From Escherichia coli (GTDB lineage Bacteria > Pseudomonadota > Gammaproteobacteria > Enterobacterales > Enterobacteriaceae), in the NCBI RefSeq assembly GCF_050920415.1, contig NZ_CP169309.1: a stretch of 64,000 bases of DNA. One strand, given 5' to 3'. Positions 2,140-13,333 of this stretch are shown here, piece by piece. Positions within the stretch are counted from its first letter, which is position 1. Each line of letters begins with the position of its first letter. The position numbers and the translations under genes are program-made. The notes below the pieces were generated by a model, which was given only the letters and a program-made list of their open reading frames with translations, ran no database searches and had not been told where the DNA came from.

Positions 2140-3567
2140 CTAGCGCGACTGCTGATTATATTCATCATCGCGTTGATAAGCTTCATCATTCGGCTGCTCC
2201 GGTACCGACCGCAGTCGATACTCTTCATCCTGGCTCACCGCTTGTTCAGCCAAATCCGGATTAATCTCGCGTTTAATTTCTACTCCTAAACCGCGAAACG
2301 CTTCTGCTTGCGCCAGCACATTTCCGCGACCTGAAGAGAGTTTTTTCATTGCCTGGCGATAGTTATCCTGCGCTTTGTCGAGACTTTGACCAATCGCGGA
2401 CATATCATCGACAAACAAGCGCATTTTGTCGTACAACTTGCTGGCACGATCGGCTATTTTCTGAGCGTTGCGGCTTTGATGCTCATAGCGCCAGAGGTTG
2501 GCGATAGTGCGCAGCGCCACCAGCAGCGTGGTCGGGCTAACCAGCATGATATTGTTTTTCAACGCTTCGGTGATCAGCTCCGGCTGGCGGTCAAGCGCCA
2601 GTAAAAATGCGGGCTCAACAGGGATAAACATCAGCACGTAATCCAGGGTTCGTAGCCCCGGCAGCTGTTGATAATCTTTACGTCCCAGCAAGCGGATGTG
2701 GTTACGCACCGACGCGATATGTTCCTGTAGCGAGCTTTCGCGGGTGTAGTCGTCTTCTGCGTTGAAATAGCGTTCATAGGCGACCAGCGTCATTTTGGCG
2801 TCGATCACCACATCTTTTCCGTGCGGCAACCGCACGATGACATCCGGCTGCATCCGCGAGCGGGCGTCATTTTCGATGCTGACCTGGGTTTCATATTCAT
2901 ACCCTTCACGCAGACCGGAAGCCTCCAGCACACGCGTCAATACTACCTCGCCCCAGTTGCCCTGGGTTTTATTGTCGCCTTTCAGCGCACGCGTCAGGTT
3001 GATCGCTTCCTGGGCCATTTGCGCGTTGAGCTGCTGGAGATTGCGTATTTCGTGAGTCAGGGTATGGCGTTCTTGTGCTTCTTTACCGAAACTGTCCTGA
3101 ACCTGACGACGAAAATCGTCCAGTTGTTCACGTAGTGGCGACAACAGGCTGTTCAGACTCTGACGGTTTTGCTCATCAACCCGGCGATTGCTGTGCTCGA
3201 AAATACGGTTGGCGAGGTTTTCAAACTGCTCACTGAGGCGCTGTTCGCTGTTGATCATTTGGCGAATTTTATCGTCAGCATGTTGCTGTACAGCCTCCAT
3301 TCGCGTGGTGACTTCACGCAGATCCGCCTCCAGCGAGGTGTTAATGCTTTGCAGACTGCGCACTTCATTATTGAGTAACTCGCACTCAGCACGCCAATGT
3401 TCGCTTTGGGTAATTTGTTGTTTTGCCGCACTTAACTCCGCGACCATCTCTTCACGTTCAGCGAATTGCTCGGCTTTTTGCTGCGCATGCTGATAACTGG
3501 CAATCAGCCAGCCAATCGCCACGCTCACCAACGCAATAACTGCGTAAACCATGATTGAGATATCCAC
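2140..3567 (-). CDS. rmuC: RmuC DNA recombination protein, 475 aa from GTG
   Basis: Track frame 2140..3660; GGAGG 4 nt before GTG at 3565-3567 (VDISIMVYAVIAL...), which matches the 475-aa length I recall for RmuC; ATG five codons downstream is the alternative start. Confidence 0.85.
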   Translation of the reverse strand: MDISIMVYAVIALVSVAIGWLIASYQHAQQKAEQFAEREEMVAELSAAKQQITQSEHWRAECELLNNEVRSLQSINTSLEADLREVTTRMEAVQQHADDKIRQMINSEQRLSEQFENLANRIFEHSNRRVDEQNRQSLNSLLSPLREQLDDFRRQVQDSFGKEAQERHTLTHEIRNLQQLNAQMAQEAINLTRALKGDNKTQGNWGEVVLTRVLEASGLREGYEYETQVSIENDARSRMQPDVIVRLPHGKDVVIDAKMTLVAYERYFNAEDDYTRESSLQEHIASVRNHIRLLGRKDYQQLPGLRTLDYVLMFIPVEPAFLLALDRQPELITEALKNNIMLVSPTTLLVALRTIANLWRYEHQSRNAQKIADRASKLYDKMRLFVDDMSAIGQSLDKAQDNYRQAMKKLSSGRGNVLAQAEAFRGLGVEIKREINPDLAEQAVSQDEEYRLRSVPEQPNDEAYQRDDEYNQQSR

Positions 3568-7212: not shown

Positions 7213-7719
7213 ATGAACACAAAACAGTCTGTTGCTCAACTCGCCGTACCGCACCGCAAGCGCCTTTCATCCACTGTGGTGGTGGCGCTGTTACTTTGTG
7301 TGGTTGCTGGCGCGGTGATAATTAATGCCGCTGATTTTCCAGCAACTGCCATTGAAACGGATCCCGGTGCAAGTGCCTTCCCTACTTTCTATGCCTGCGC
7401 TCTGATTGTGCTCGCTGTCTTACTGGTGATACGCGATCTTTTGCTGGCAAAACCAGTCCCTTGCGCCAACGCACAGGAAAAACCGGCATTAAGGAAAACG
7501 GCAACAGGAATTGCGGCAACCGCGTTTTATATTGTGGCGATGAGCTACTGCGGTTATCTCATTACTACTCCTGTTTTCCTCATCGTCATTATGACGTTGA
7601 TGGGCTACAGGCGATGGGTACTCACACCGGGTATTGCGCTGCTGTTAACGGCAATCCTCTGGTTGCTGTTTGTCGAAGCGTTACAGGTGCCATTGCCTGT
7701 CGGCACATTTTTCGAATAA
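7213..7719 (+). CDS. tctB: TTT small membrane subunit TctB, 168 aa
   Basis: Small hydrophobic multi-TM protein between tctC-like and tctA-like genes. Confidence 0.75.
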   Translation: MNTKQSVAQLAVPHRKRLSSTVVVALLLCVVAGAVIINAADFPATAIETDPGASAFPTFYACALIVLAVLLVIRDLLLAKPVPCANAQEKPALRKTATGIAATAFYIVAMSYCGYLITTPVFLIVIMTLMGYRRWVLTPGIALLLTAILWLLFVEALQVPLPVGTFFE

Positions 7720-7731
7720 CAGGGGCCTGCA

Positions 7732-9222
7732 ATGTTTGAAAGTGAACTTTTAACTCAGGGGTTTTCGACATTACTCAGTAATCCTCAGGCGCTGCTGTTT
7801 GCCACGTTTGGAGTGATGCTGGGTATTATGATTGGCGCTCTGCCTGGCCTGACAGCGACCATGGGTGTGGCGATTTTGCTGCCTTTCACCTACGGCATGG
7901 AGCCTGTTTCTGGCTTATTGATGATTTGCGGTGTCTTTTTTGGTGGTGTGTATGGTGGTTCTATCACCGCAATTTTGCTCAAAATTCCCGGTACACCTGC
8001 CGCCGCTGCCACCGCCATTGACGGATATGAGCTGACGAAGCAGGGAAAAGCCGGGCTGGCGTTAAGTGCCGCCACGTTCTCTTCTTTTAGCGGTGGAACG
8101 CTCAGCATTATCGTATTGATGTTTCTCTCTCCGGTACTTGCCAGTTGGGCGTTGAAATTTAGTGCCTCGGAGTCCTTCGCCCTGGCAACCTTCGGGCTAA
8201 GTATTATTGCCAGTATTTCCGGTGAGTCACTGATTAAAGGGCTGATTGCCGGGGTTGGCGGATTGCTGATCGCAACGATAGGCCTTGATCCAATGGGCGG
8301 TTTTCCACGCTTTACAGGTGGATTTGTGGAGCTGATGAATGTGCCATTTATCCCGGTGATGATTGGTCTGTTTGCTGCTTCAGAAGCATTCCGCTCTATG
8401 GAGCAAAACCAGCAAATTCGTCAGGGGGCGAAGGTGGCTATCGGCAGTCTGTTACTGCCCTGGCAAACACTACGCCGCATCGCATTAACCATTTTGCGCT
8501 CATCAGGATTAGGGGTTTTTATCGGCATGATCCCCGGTGCGGGGGCAGATATTGCAGCTTTTGTTGCCTATAACGAAACTCGTCGTTTCAGTAAGACGCC
8601 TGAAAACTTTGGTAAGGGTGAGATTAAGGCGGTGGCCTCCTGTGAGGCAGGCGCGAATGGCTGCACCGGTGGCGCATTGTTACCTATGCTGACGTTGGGG
8701 ATCCCAGGCGATGCGGTAACTGCCATCATGCTGGGCGCGTTAACGTTACAAGGGATGCAGCCAGGCCCACTGATGTTTACCGACCACGGCGATATGGTTT
8801 ATACGCTGTTTGTCGGCATGATCTTTTGTTACTTCATGCTGCTAGTTCTTGGACTGCTCTCTTTGAAAGTCATCGGTAACGTGGTGAAGATCCCCGGCAA
8901 TATTCTCACGCCGATGATCCTCGCGCTTTGTGTTGTTGGGACTTATGCGCTGAACAACAGCCTGTTTGATGTTGGCATTATGCTGATTGCAGGCGTGGTG
9001 GGCTATTTCATGCAAAAAGGGGGGTATCCGGCGTCACCCGTAGTGCTGGCATTGATTATGGGGCCAATGGCGGAAAGTAATTTTCGCCGTGCGCTGTCGC
9101 TTTCAGGGGGGTCACTCGACTTCCTGTATACCCGACCGATAACCCTGGCATTGCTGACTCTGGCAGCCTTTACGCTACTGACGCCAATAATACGCAAAAT
9201 TATGCGCTTACGGCGTCAGTAA
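7732..9222 (+). CDS. tctA: TTT large permease subunit TctA, 496 aa
   Basis: About 500-aa polytopic membrane protein with Gly-rich helices, directly after tctB-like gene. Confidence 0.8.
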   Translation: MFESELLTQGFSTLLSNPQALLFATFGVMLGIMIGALPGLTATMGVAILLPFTYGMEPVSGLLMICGVFFGGVYGGSITAILLKIPGTPAAAATAIDGYELTKQGKAGLALSAATFSSFSGGTLSIIVLMFLSPVLASWALKFSASESFALATFGLSIIASISGESLIKGLIAGVGGLLIATIGLDPMGGFPRFTGGFVELMNVPFIPVMIGLFAASEAFRSMEQNQQIRQGAKVAIGSLLLPWQTLRRIALTILRSSGLGVFIGMIPGAGADIAAFVAYNETRRFSKTPENFGKGEIKAVASCEAGANGCTGGALLPMLTLGIPGDAVTAIMLGALTLQGMQPGPLMFTDHGDMVYTLFVGMIFCYFMLLVLGLLSLKVIGNVVKIPGNILTPMILALCVVGTYALNNSLFDVGIMLIAGVVGYFMQKGGYPASPVVLALIMGPMAESNFRRALSLSGGSLDFLYTRPITLALLTLAAFTLLTPIIRKIMRLRRQ

Positions 9223-10345: not shown

Positions 10346-10459
10346 ACTCTTCATTCTGCATGACTGCATAAAAGATGAGCCGATTCAGGCAATGTGATTT
10401 GTTGCATGCTGACTATAGTTAACATTGCGCAACATTTTTATAAGGGTACGGAGAATACC

Positions 10460-11272
10460 ATGGCAACAACACAACAATCTGGATTTGCACCTGCTGCATC
10501 ACCTCTCGCTTCGACCATCGTTCAGACCCCGGATGACGCGATTGTAGCAGGCATCACCTCTATCCCTTCACAAGGGGATAACATGCCTGCTTACCATGCC
10601 AGACCAAAGCAGAGCGATGGCCTACTACCAGTGGTCATTGTAGTGCAGGAAATTTTTGGCGTGCATGAACATATCCGCGATATTTGTCGCCGTCTGGCAC
10701 TGGAGGGGTATCTGGCTATCGCACCTGAACTTTACTTCCGCGAAGGCGATCCGAATGATTTTGCCGATATCCCTACGCTGCTTAGCGGTCTGGTAGCAAA
10801 AGTGCCTGACTCGCAAGTACTGGCCGATCTCGATCATGTCGCCAGTTGGGCGTCACGCAACGGCGGCGATGTTCATCGCTTAATGATCACCGGATTTTGC
10901 TGGGGTGGGCGCATCACCTGGCTGTATGCTGCGCATAACCCGCAACTGAAAGCGGCGGTGGCATGGTACGGCAAACTGACAGGCGATAAGTCGCTGAATT
11001 CACCGAAACAACCTGTTGATATCGCAACCGATCTTAACGCGCCGGTTCTCGGCTTGTATGGTGGTCAGGATAACAGCATTCCGCAGGAGAGCGTTGAAAC
11101 CATGCGCCAGGCGCTGCGGGCTGCTAATGCGAAAGCAGAGATTATCGTCTACCCGGATGCCGGGCATGCATTCAACGCCGATTATCGCCCGAGCTATCAT
11201 GCCGAATCTGCGAAAGATGGCTGGCAGCGAATGCTGGAGTGGTTTAAGCGGTATGGTGGGAAACGGAATTAG
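10460..11272 (+). CDS. dlhH: Dienelactone-hydrolase-family protein DlhH (YsgA), 270 aa
   Basis: Track frame 10394..11272; start set at ATG 10460 (MATTQQSGFAPAASPL...) with GGAG upstream; alpha/beta hydrolase motifs. Confidence 0.85.
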   Translation: MATTQQSGFAPAASPLASTIVQTPDDAIVAGITSIPSQGDNMPAYHARPKQSDGLLPVVIVVQEIFGVHEHIRDICRRLALEGYLAIAPELYFREGDPNDFADIPTLLSGLVAKVPDSQVLADLDHVASWASRNGGDVHRLMITGFCWGGRITWLYAAHNPQLKAAVAWYGKLTGDKSLNSPKQPVDIATDLNAPVLGLYGGQDNSIPQESVETMRQALRAANAKAEIIVYPDAGHAFNADYRPSYHAESAKDGWQRMLEWFKRYGGKRN

Positions 11273-11663
11273 TTTCCTCTTAGTCTATATTTGAGATGGT
11301 GAGTGAACGAATGCGTTTTGCTGCCATCTCTGTCCCCCAAAAAATAATCAGTATGAATTGATTGGAGAGCACGACTCCGCTATTTGACCTTAAGAAAGTC
11401 GGCAAGTCATAGTCATAAATGAGTCTCTTCACTGGCAGACACCTTAAAGATTTACCATCAACTCCCATTCTCAAACAAACATTAATTATTATCAACACAT
11501 TCACATTAATTATAAATTATCTCAGACCTTCCTGATAAAAAGATATTAAAGTGAAACATTTTGTTTTTCACATTTTAGTTCATCCCTATTAGGCGTAAAT
11601 AAAGGTAAAAAATAACAATACTATTTTTCTTTCACAAAAGAATTAACAAAAGGTTTTTCAAGG

Positions 11664-12062
11664 ATGAGTGATATTATTTACCTGACCATAACCGGAGAAC
11701 AACACGGATGTATTTCCTCTCGTTGTGGAACGAGCACATCAATAGGTAATCGCTGGCAGATTGGTCATGAAGATGAAATCTTCGCGTTCTCGCTCTCTAA
11801 TAGTATTACGAATACAGGAAAAGGGTCACATTTGCATGGCCTTAGTTTCTGTAAGTTGATTGACAAAAGCTCCCCGTTACTTATTAACGCTATTAACAAT
11901 AACGAGCAGTTGTTCATGGAGTTTGACTTCTATCGGATCAATAGATTTGGTCGATGGGAGAAATATTACAACATTCAACTCCGCGGCGCGCTCTTATCAG
12001 CAATCAATCACCTGTTTACGGAGAACAATCTGGATACAGAAACCATCACTGTCAGTTATTAA
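11664..12062 (+). CDS. Hcp-family (T6SS tube protein) domain ORF, 132 aa, ends at TAA in frame with the downstream toxin-like ORF
   Basis: MSDIIYLTITGEQHG...GKGSHLHGLSFCKLIDKSSPLL...FDFYRINRFGRWEKYYNIQL fits the Hcp-family pattern; AT-rich. Confidence 0.7.
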   Translation: MSDIIYLTITGEQHGCISSRCGTSTSIGNRWQIGHEDEIFAFSLSNSITNTGKGSHLHGLSFCKLIDKSSPLLINAINNNEQLFMEFDFYRINRFGRWEKYYNIQLRGALLSAINHLFTENNLDTETITVSY

Positions 12063-12107
12063 TATATACTCTCCAGGCATCTGATTGCTAATACTGAATT
12101 TAGTTAT

Positions 12108-12812
12108 TTGGCATTTCCCGATAACTACAATCGTCTGTTTATACCACGGCCAAAAACTAAAGATGATAATGGCCTCAAAACACTCAATAGTAAAGCTGTT
12201 GGCAGACTGCTTGCTGCTGGCGGCATATACAATGGGAATATCGAAGGATTCAGGGAAACAGCAAACAAGTTGGGGGGAGATGCACCTGCTGGTTACGATC
12301 AAGTTATGGATAACAAAGGGTTACTCATCGCTGGTGCTTCAATAGTTGCTGGAGCAGTTCTGGGGAGAATGAGACTCCCTGATTTGGAATCACTTGAGCA
12401 TTTCGGAGCCAGAGGAGCAGTATCAGGAAGACCATTTAATCCCGACCTTGCCGGTGGTCCAATAGAAAATCTGACGACAGATGGCGTAACAATCAACAGG
12501 GAAGGTATCGCTATTGTTGAAAAACACATAGCCAGATTTGGTCATGACCCTGTAAATGAAGTGATGATCAATAGACTGAAAGACATTGAGAAAGGAAAAA
12601 TCCCCCCAGAACAAGTAGATCTTAACTTCTATACTCATGAATGTCGGGAATATCAGCGTTACTGTAATCTTGGTTGGGAAACAGGACAACCTGATGGTGA
12701 CGCAGGCTATGCACTCTGGAATCATACGCATACTGCTACTCTAGAAGATTATAAACTTAAGGGAGAACTTAATGACTTATACCACCAGGATGCACTTGAC
12801 TATGATAACTGA
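12108..12812 (+). CDS. Toxin-like C-terminal domain ORF (class undetermined), same frame as upstream Hcp ORF; 234 aa from TTG
   Basis: Same reading frame as 11664..12062 with only one stop (TAA 12060-12062) and 15 open codons between; no ATG or SD of its own. Confidence 0.6.
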   Translation: MAFPDNYNRLFIPRPKTKDDNGLKTLNSKAVGRLLAAGGIYNGNIEGFRETANKLGGDAPAGYDQVMDNKGLLIAGASIVAGAVLGRMRLPDLESLEHFGARGAVSGRPFNPDLAGGPIENLTTDGVTINREGIAIVEKHIARFGHDPVNEVMINRLKDIEKGKIPPEQVDLNFYTHECREYQRYCNLGWETGQPDGDAGYALWNHTHTATLEDYKLKGELNDLYHQDALDYDN

Positions 12813-13047
12813 AACTGAAATTAACGTACTGAAAGTTATGGCTGAGAAAGATATAAACTGGAACTGGATGAATCTCGATCGCACACTATCTATAAGGCAA
12901 ATTCCAGGATTCGGTAATGTTGTTAACATTGTTAACAAATTAGCTAACGAGGGTTTGGTTATTATTGAGGATAGCGGACATAAGTCTATGCCTCACTACC
13001 ACGTTACTGAAAAGGGATACAATCTCGTGAAAAGTGAGAATAAATAA
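12802..13047 (+). CDS. Small putative immunity protein, 81 aa
   Basis: ATG at 12802 overlaps the toxin ORF stop (ATGATAACTGA); track frame 12772..13047. Confidence 0.55.
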   Translation: MITETEINVLKVMAEKDINWNWMNLDRTLSIRQIPGFGNVVNIVNKLANEGLVIIEDSGHKSMPHYHVTEKGYNLVKSENK

Positions 13048-13141
13048 CGTAGCGTTGATTACTGAACAAATCGCTCAGGATTATATTTTGCGAAAAAAAT
13101 GATTCGGTTATTTCTGTGTCTGAACGGCCGCAGATAGCAAA

Positions 13142-13165
13142 ATGGCTTCCGGTGATGGAAGCCAT
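13142..13165 (+). terminator. 9-bp stem hairpin ATGGCTTCC-ggtgat-GGAAGCCAT downstream of the islet
   Basis: Perfect inverted repeat read directly; weak T tract (cagattattgg). Confidence 0.3.
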
Positions 13166-13195
13166 CAGATTATTGGCAAAGTGCGTGTTGTTCAT

Positions 13196-13226
13196 GCCGG
13201 ATGCGGCGTGAACGCCTTATCTGGCC
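13196..13226. repeat. REP element
   Basis: gccggatgcggcgtgaacgccttatctggcc. Confidence 0.75.
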
Positions 13227-13333
13227 AACTAAATCTTGAAAATTCAATAAATTGAATAAATTATGTAGGCCTGGTATCAGGCAGTTTCGCCTCTTTCATC
13301 GTACTGCAATTTACAGTGACTCGTTAATACTCA

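Follow-up and report, generated by a model that had tools for sequence, protein, structure and literature searches.

An intact immunity-family gene overlapping a disrupted Hcp-toxin gene in the ysgA-metE islet of Escherichia coli

Introduction

What is the role of a short, intact gene that overlaps the end of a toxin gene interrupted further upstream? This question is raised by a stretch of 64,000 nucleotides (nt) of Escherichia coli chromosome (contig NZ_CP169309.1 of RefSeq assembly GCF_050920415.1), hereafter called the window, in which an open reading frame (ORF) encoding 81 amino acids (aa) at 12802-13047 lies directly behind the remains of a gene for an Hcp-fused toxin. A first-pass annotation, made from the sequence alone, had proposed that this ORF is an immunity gene translationally coupled to the toxin ORF, and that it would be kept even if the toxin were pseudogenised, as a defence against kin carrying intact copies. 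Here we report that, with a probability that we put at roughly 85%, 12802-13047 encodes the immunity protein cognate to the toxin domain found at the C-terminus of a type VI secretion effector fused to Hcp. E. coli carries this polymorphic toxin domain on an orphan Hcp. The layout is an ordinary, textbook one; the toxin domain and the immunity family are both unstudied and mis-annotated.

Results

The 81-codon gene starts within the last codons of the toxin frame

The gene and the elements surrounding its start codon are the following.

12802-13047, plus strand: intact 81-aa immunity-family gene, predicted to encode a minimal winged helix; based on the ORF, on its annotation as a coding sequence (CDS) in other strains and on homologs located 3' of the same toxin core.
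12802-12812, plus strand: start/stop overlap ATGATAACTGA, 11 nt, placing the start of the 81-aa gene within the last toxin codons (Y-D-N-stop).
12787-12790, plus strand: AGGA, a possible but weak Shine-Dalgarno sequence located 11 nt from ATG 12802, identified by reading.

Direct reading of the sequence around 12800, ctATGATAACTGAaact, revealed an ATG at 12802-12804 that opens an 81-codon ORF on the plus strand, closed by a TAA at 13045-13047. The toxin frame (ORF 12108-12812) ends with the TGA at 12810-12812, and ATG 12802 sits 8 nt ahead of this stop codon. The overlap and the 81-aa product given by the first-pass annotation were thus both confirmed from the sequence and the ORF list. The same frame can also be opened from an upstream ATG at 12772, yielding 91 aa, and contains another in-frame ATG at 12790. 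RefSeq places the start in other strains at the equivalent of 12802 (WP_000627418/420/421/422), and homologs encoded by Citrobacter, Atlantibacter and a Mangrovibacter-like plasmid begin at the matching position with the sequence 'MIT[ED]TE[IL]NVLKVMA'. The loci of these three groups also display the identical 11-nt overlap. Furthermore, a profile search recovered 201 clusters, nearly all of 75-100 aa, and conservation of the family reaches Pseudomonas indica at 29% identity. Together with the confidently predicted fold described below, this conservation establishes that the 81-aa gene is real, beyond a chance ORF.

The upstream gene is an Hcp-toxin fusion interrupted by a premature stop codon

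Alignment with intact alleles divides the upstream gene into two parts.

11664-12062, plus strand: N-terminal part of Hcp (TssD), closed by a premature TAA at 12060-12062; based on allele alignment, Pfam and TIGR03344.
12063-12812, plus strand: remaining open Hcp-toxin frame, comprising the end of Hcp, a Gly/Ala-rich linker (~12174-12398) and the toxin core (~12399-12809).

The intact gene corresponds to 11664-12812 and encodes a 382-aa protein composed of Hcp (TssD) and a C-terminal toxin. WL297 and S1-SRL-01-C have it annotated as one 382-aa product named 'type VI secretion system tube protein TssD', and the 81-aa CDS comes next with the same overlap. Pfam T6SS_HCP covers residues 6-135 of the intact protein, which also matches NCBIfam TIGR03344, and a Pfam search returned no match for the C-terminal 240 residues of the 382. 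An Hcp domain is therefore fused to a C-terminal toxin extension in the intact allele. In the window, this fusion is broken by a G>T substitution at 12060 that converts codon 133 from GAA to TAA (E133*), the sole amino-acid difference between the toxin gene of the window and the WL297 protein. Because E133* cuts 11664-12812, the 'toxin ORF' at 12108-12812 is the still-open tail of a pseudogene, and the pseudogenisation suspected at first pass is borne out by the allele alignment.

The linker, KTLNSKAVGRLLAAGGIYNGN...GLLIAGASIVAGAVLGRM, extends over 12174-12398 of the window (residues ~171-245) and contains a hydrophobic Gly/Ala-rich stretch; it was also noted at 10377-11555 of locus L027. It is common to Hcp-ET1 (73% identity overall) and to proteins with other toxin tips (P0122-P0124, P0149 and P0153), and AlphaFold models it with low confidence (predicted local distance difference test score, pLDDT, ~50-60). 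This linker marks the recombination point at which tips are swapped, and could serve as a pre-toxin or translocation segment.

The 81-aa protein is paired with the same toxin core across genomes

Searching with the last 211 residues of the toxin retrieved 383 proteins. The last ~135 residues, here termed the core, retain 45-60% identity out to Pseudomonas, Burkholderiales, Planctomycetes and Cyanobacteria, and the linker ahead of the core is common only among Enterobacterales. By sequence search, the core is carried by Hcp, DUF8093, PAAR, WXG100 and unannotated N-termini. A structure search added RHS proteins and many bacteriocins of 500-770 aa annotated 'S-type pyocin / pyosin-cloacin translocation domain', and stand-alone cores of 136-165 aa exist in other bacteria. 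A single toxin domain is thus borne by several unrelated delivery domains.

Hand-checked loci of Atlantibacter, Citrobacter, a Mangrovibacter-like conjugative plasmid, Pantoea, Cronobacter and Pseudomonas indica all encode an 80-97-aa homolog of the 81-aa protein directly after the core, with 29-84% identity. We then scanned one genome per species systematically, using the toxin alignment as the query and the immunity-family profile on downstream ORFs. Among the 79 toxin loci recovered, 46 bear a same-strand homolog just 3' of the toxin, 35 of which start within 50 nt (<=50 nt) of the toxin stop codon; at 3 additional loci, the homolog adjoins an interrupted toxin frame. The pairing holds whatever delivery domain carries the core. 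These results show that the small co-directional gene co-occurs with the toxin across genomes, as the toxin-immunity layout proposed at first pass called for.

Furthermore, the immunity proteins diverge faster than the toxin cores (mean divergence of 0.68 vs 0.44 over 49 pairs), and the two distance matrices are correlated (r=0.88, a value reached by 0 of 2000 permutations), as would be expected of immunity-like evolution. Orphan or duplicate immunity genes also occur, including an orphan copy of the 81-aa family (87 aa) in a Citrobacter immunity array. The shared core, the co-occurring small gene, its faster divergence and its orphan copies all agree with a polymorphic toxin-immunity module in the Zhang/Aravind sense.

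This array (L010/L011, 2713-7003) lies next to ggt/yhhA/ugpQ, which is where E. coli has Hcp-ET1. It consists, in order, of an Hcp-toxin gene (384 aa), a 164-aa ORF at the YrhA position, a 111-aa ORF, Imm35, the orphan 87-aa homolog, a second Hcp-toxin gene (382 aa) and an 86-aa immunity gene. Other arrangements were also observed. At L013 (3983-5619), the core has a third, unannotated N-terminus (342 aa) and is accompanied by an 86-aa immunity gene, near a TraI relaxase gene and a DsbA/ScsC-like gene; further 3' are an orphan colicin D-type immunity gene (PF09204) and then an EcoRII restriction-modification pair, a layout that suggests plasmid carriage. On a metagenomic contig (L024/L025, 2580-5158), a WXG100 domain is fused to the core and an EspC/WXG100 gene lies alongside, a type VII secretion context, and the next gene encodes a 236-aa HEAT-like protein in place of the small winged helix.

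The 81-aa protein is predicted to be a minimal winged helix

Sequence comparison returned only sub-threshold Pfam/NCBIfam hits for the 81-aa protein: HTH_45 (E 0.07), EarA (0.12) and Lrs14 (E 0.023, 14.7 bits vs a cut-off of 90). Neither the Pfam immunity families nor, by sequence search, the PDB gave a match; the protein is not a colicin E-type immunity protein. The AlphaFold model computed from 20 sequences has a mean pLDDT of 93.4 and the order helix, helix, helix, strand, strand, helix. Using Foldseek, we superposed this model on the DNA-binding cores of RosR, MexR, MarR, MepR and PadR with template modelling (TM) scores of 0.7-0.8. In this model, the protein has the winged helix-turn-helix core alone and thus forms a minimal winged helix. 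It is no MarR protein of ~140 aa with dimerisation helices, and Pfam MarR gave no match at E<=10.

Seventeen of the 20 family members have a net charge between -3 and +1 (range -5 to +3), with isoelectric points (pI) of 4.6-9.3, and the predicted recognition helix, VVNIVNKLAN, contains a single basic residue. This near-neutral charge and non-basic recognition helix would argue against sequence-specific DNA binding. Judged by eye, with no predictor used, the 81-aa sequence has no visible signal peptide or hydrophobic segment. The protein should therefore be cytoplasmic, like the immunity proteins of toxins that act in the cytoplasm.

The toxin core is modelled as an all-helical domain

In the numbering of the 211-aa query, residues H117, R120, D148, Y152, H154, E155, E158, R161, W181, H185 and E190 of the toxin are invariant or nearly so. 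AlphaFold (29 sequences) models the core as a helix bundle with pLDDT >90 and without a beta-beta-alpha-metal motif. No relative was found in the PDB by sequence search, and a structure search with the model returned no solved relative. The core is acidic in most members, with a median pI of 5.1, which is unlike what is expected of a DNase.

RefSeq names the 81-aa gene 'hypothetical protein' or 'MarR family' regulator, and the partner fragments 'HNH endonuclease' or 'colicin'. The latter two labels are unsupported because the model is all-helical and lacks the beta-beta-alpha-metal motif; we rejected an HNH/colicin-DNase identity on this model and on the lack of a Pfam match and of a PDB relative, no HNH catalytic fold or motif being found in the toxin. 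A papain-like enzyme, the type of the fifth clan of Ma et al. 2017, is disfavoured, as the lone cysteine of the putative catalytic motif is variable (HECRE vs HELRE). The target of the toxin would be cytoplasmic, since the partner protein has no visible signal peptide or membrane segment and the core rides scaffolds of nuclease-type bacteriocins.

A broader picture can be drawn tentatively, and we hold it to be possible rather than probable. In this picture, a killing domain of new, all-helical fold and probably metal-dependent activity would be widespread from Proteobacteria to Cyanobacteria, common to T6SS effectors of the Hcp, PAAR and RHS kinds, to a T7SS-type WXG100 protein and to S-type pyocin-like bacteriocins. 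Its inhibitor would be a minimal winged helix recruited from a DNA-binding fold, and in E. coli lineages with a long-dead Hcp the core and the immunity gene would persist under selection as a unit of two genes, and not as debris.

Two toxin-immunity types occur in E. coli

A DNA search of 5426 complete E. coli genomes detected the 81-aa gene in 848, i.e. about 1 in 6, and toxin-core DNA in 846. Carriers of the 81-aa gene include Nissle 1917, UTI89 as well as O121 and O145 E. coli that produce Shiga toxin (STEC). About 118 genomes bear the type present in the window (A-type), and ~730 match in the identity band of a second type (B2-type, 90-95%). We examined the B2-type layout in two loci, those of Nissle 1917 and S1-JOR-02-A; the genomes that match include UTI89.

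The B2-type toxin is ~99% identical to the A-type toxin up to residue 270 and ~65% identical over residues 290-382. It is followed, with an ATGA overlap, by an 85-aa paralog sharing 62% identity with the 81-aa protein and, after a gap of 75 nt, by a copy of the 81-aa gene itself, 89% identical to that of the window and beginning with GTG. From the immunity start codon onwards, and exactly from there, the DNA is again homologous to the A-type. Each of the 33 B2-type rows sampled records a hypothetical protein under the match. This layout looks like the outcome of a recombination that brought in a new toxin tip together with its immunity gene and placed both in front of the older immunity gene, left there as an orphan. 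Such a tip-swap pattern would place the specificity determinant in the last ~95 residues of the toxin. A-type and B2-type would represent two immunity specificities, which may influence the ability of E. coli strains to live together in the gut.

The immunity gene and the core frame remain open in lineages that have lost Hcp

The E133* mutation is common to the window, MFDS1022581 (together with an IS2 insertion), O121 strains (with H56*) and OkiPb01683 (with a 22-bp deletion), and in the O145 strains an IS3-family insertion has removed the Hcp part. Both the 81-aa ORF and the toxin-core frame are open in every dead-Hcp lineage that we examined.

We computed the ratio of non-synonymous to synonymous polymorphism (pN/pS) over five A-type alleles. 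It is 0.74 for the immunity gene, with 6 synonymous and 18 non-synonymous pairwise differences, too few to judge selection. For the core, which looks constrained, it is 0.07 vs 0.20 for Hcp, with intact and broken alleles pooled and tiny counts. The cores of the window and of the O121 strains differ by 1 non-synonymous and 4 synonymous changes. Selective retention of the immunity gene after loss of the toxin is plausible. The idea put forward at first pass, that the gene is kept to resist kin, is thus upheld in part: the ORF is open in several lineages with a dead Hcp and in the orphan B2 copies, but selection is not demonstrated by a pN/pS of 0.74 on few sites.

MFDS1022581 (L001, 4613-5840) is the closest relative of the window, with flanks that are 100% identical. 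Its IS2 lies within the already dead Hcp-toxin gene, and the window does not share this insertion.

The module resides in a low-GC islet between ysgA and metE

11280-13250, no strand assigned: low-GC islet with the toxin-immunity module, between ysgA and metE; 34-45% GC vs 50-56% in the flanks.

The islet, present in 848 of the 5426 genomes, is absent from E. coli 55989, in which ysgA directly adjoins metE. The ORF list of the 64-kb window contains no type VI secretion system (T6SS) cluster.

A second variable segment lies near the islet. Tripartite tricarboxylate transporter genes (7213-9222), upstream of udp, are present in the window and in a few other strains; many E. coli are devoid of this segment, and rmuC adjoins udp in them. 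At ~13150-13260, 3' of the immunity gene, a stretch (…gccggatgcggcgtgaacgccttatctggcc…) resembles a REP/BIME-type repeat, and a 4.1-kb query spanning it yielded a median of 17 matches per E. coli genome. Some RefSeq records place a 40-aa 'hypothetical protein' (WP_001230617.1) ~40 nt past the immunity stop codon, in or near this repeat-like stretch; this call is probably spurious.

Discussion

Our observations lead us to favour an immunity function for 12802-13047, according to which the 81-aa protein would bind and neutralise the toxin domain encoded upstream. In strains with an intact allele, Hcp-toxin and immunity protein would be expressed from one transcript, and a ribosome ending the toxin could restart on the immunity gene, whose start codon precedes the toxin stop. 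The cytoplasmic winged-helix protein would then bind and block the toxin domain, thereby shielding the producing cell and its sister cells when kin deliver the toxin. In the strain of the window, the carrier is dead and the toxin would no longer be fired; provided that the hcp promoter still drives its transcription, the immunity gene would offer protection from neighbours with the intact A-type allele.

Several points weigh against this reading. A promoter/terminator scan of the plus strand found no promoter-like site over 11413-13236, and so none within the toxin frame. Expression of the 81-aa gene in this strain is uncertain, its coupling partner no longer being translated to its end. Because the premature stop codon lies 740 nt upstream, coupling is probably lost here; the first-pass annotation was right about the 11-nt overlap, but the translational coupling that it drew from it probably no longer operates in this strain. 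Next, 23 of the 79 toxin loci have a different small-protein family downstream. This second family, an 85-96-aa ORF in the same position, accompanies a more distant core and occurs mostly with the pyocin-like bacteriocins that Serratia, Pseudomonas, Pantoea and Erwinia encode (L075, L082, L090, L092-L096 and L099-L106, at ~2900-3210 of each locus). Its members share the motif '...DVILFL...LDRFF...KGPNWKEPKFVTEKKYGIE' ('KGPNWKxPxF...'), and hhalign aligned the 81-aa family with this 'KGPNWK' family with E=0.026 and a probability of 1.9%. The second family is probably the immunity protein of these pyocin-like bacteriocins. Furthermore, the correlation between the distance matrices of immunity proteins and cores is confounded by shared ancestry. 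The winged helix is also the commonest DNA-binding fold, and some homologs bear the RefSeq name 'MarR family transcriptional regulator'. Finally, a literature search using DUF8093, the WP accessions and Hcp/metE returned no paper mentioning this pair and no experiment on it.

The lost coupling, the empty promoter scan, the weak and distant AGGA ahead of the ATG and the lack of a sign of purifying selection among the very few changes in A-type alleles would all fit a gene that is an immunity gene by descent and a functionless relic in this strain, intact merely since 246 bp decay slowly. We consider this unlikely, while giving it some weight. E133* is old, being present in several lineages, and later lesions of Hcp (H56*, the 22-bp deletion, IS2 and IS3) have accumulated, yet the 81-aa and core frames are open in each of them. 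Both B2 loci that we examined also keep the orphan ORF open, and every one of the sampled B2-type rows lists a hypothetical protein there.

The same open frames raise a different possibility, namely that core and immunity gene form a module of two genes sufficient unto itself, be it addiction-like or a recombination cassette that is a silent 'orphan', in which the core is made from an internal start and the immunity gene guards against the cell's own fragment. A core frame free of stop codons in all lineages with a destroyed Hcp, its lower pN/pS compared to Hcp and the stand-alone cores of other bacteria are in line with this proposal. However, no convincing ribosome-binding site precedes any in-frame start past 12062, and the pN/pS comparison is built on tiny counts with intact and broken alleles pooled. 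We regard such a module as improbable.

That the 81-aa protein is instead a small winged-helix DNA-binding regulator of the locus, with no part in toxin neutralisation, is very improbable: its model does superpose on the DNA-binding domains of RosR, MarR, MepR and PadR, and HTH_45 and Lrs14 give weak matches, but the protein consists of the core only (81 vs ~140 aa) without the MarR dimerisation helices or a Pfam MarR match, the family is near neutral with one basic residue in the recognition helix, and the gene travels with the toxin core across operons, carriers and phyla, with orphan and duplicate copies that are the behaviour of immunity genes.

Recognising the locus as a toxin-immunity pair corrects the RefSeq labels and separates it from Hcp-ET1/ETI1, with which it is easily confused. 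Moreover, a toxin domain without known fold or activity that also arms pyocin-like bacteriocins represents a reasonable biochemical target.

How does this pair relate to systems already described? PT1/PIM1 is a recently found polymorphic toxin of novel fold from an Escherichia species, the active site of which is occluded by an immunity protein encoded downstream (Nachmias et al., bioRxiv 10.1101/2021.10.19.465003). We rejected identity with PT1/PIM1 based on protein sizes, and the PDB contains no solved relative of the window toxin. The description of Hcp proteins that bear a toxin at the C-terminus ('Hcp-ET'), and of the matching immunity proteins ('ETI'), goes back to Ma et al. 2017, as summarised in PMC6730261, PMC6099711 and bioRxiv 10.1101/2024.03.05.583533.

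The Hcp-ET1/ETI1 pair (O104:H4 C227-11, 55989 and STEC004) is the closest in appearance. Its Hcp domain and linker are 73% identical to those of the window over residues 1-230 and, according to these summaries, it is likewise a T6SS-delivered effector with a downstream gene that protects self. In contrast, the two toxins are unrelated after residue 230, and the ET1 tip gives weak HNH/Col-Pyo_DNase signals whereas the tip of the window gives none. The loci also differ, yhhY-ggt for ET1 vs ysgA-metE for the window, as do the downstream proteins, YrhA of 164 aa vs an 81-aa winged helix. According to the same summaries, ETI1 was tested experimentally, whereas the pair of the window is known from sequence and models. 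The published Hcp-ET1 locus tag in O104:H4 C227-11 corresponds to a 392-aa YhhZ-type TssD followed by YrhA (164 aa), beside ggt; this and the missing ysgA-metE islet of 55989 led us to reject identity with Hcp-ET1/ETI1. Hcp-ET2 (DUF2235) was excluded by the lack of a Pfam match.

Hcp-ET3-4 (UTI89_C0121, 593 aa) is similar in that an Hcp-fused toxin is accompanied by several immunity genes, to be compared with the two paralogous small genes of the B2 locus. However, only the Hcp domain is common, with 65% identity over residues 1-170; Hcp-ET3-4 has its own toxin, Pyocin_S plus Col-Pyo_DNase, and three colicin-type bacteriocin immunity genes. Identity with this system was rejected too, since it shares the Hcp domain only.

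Among S-type pyocins and colicin-like nuclease bacteriocins, many 'S-type pyocin / pyosin-cloacin translocation domain' proteins of Serratia, Pseudomonas, Salmonella and Citrobacter use the same core as their C-terminal killing domain, with a small ORF directly after it. Unlike the Hcp effector, they are released and imported via receptors and not fired by a T6SS. Their downstream protein belongs to the 'KGPNWKxPxF...' family, and the core matches no classic killing domain in Pfam or the PDB.

Orphan CdiA-CT/CdiI and Rhs-CT/RhsI modules arise where recombination exchanges one toxin tip for another and the displaced or orphan immunity genes persist downstream. With a new tip and a new immunity gene ahead of the old one, the B2 locus is alike in this respect; it differs in that the carrier of the window is Hcp and that the module occupies a single short islet with no array. 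Since its toxin tip and immunity protein differ from those of ET1/ETI1 and ET3-4, the module of the window represents a further Hcp-ET type.

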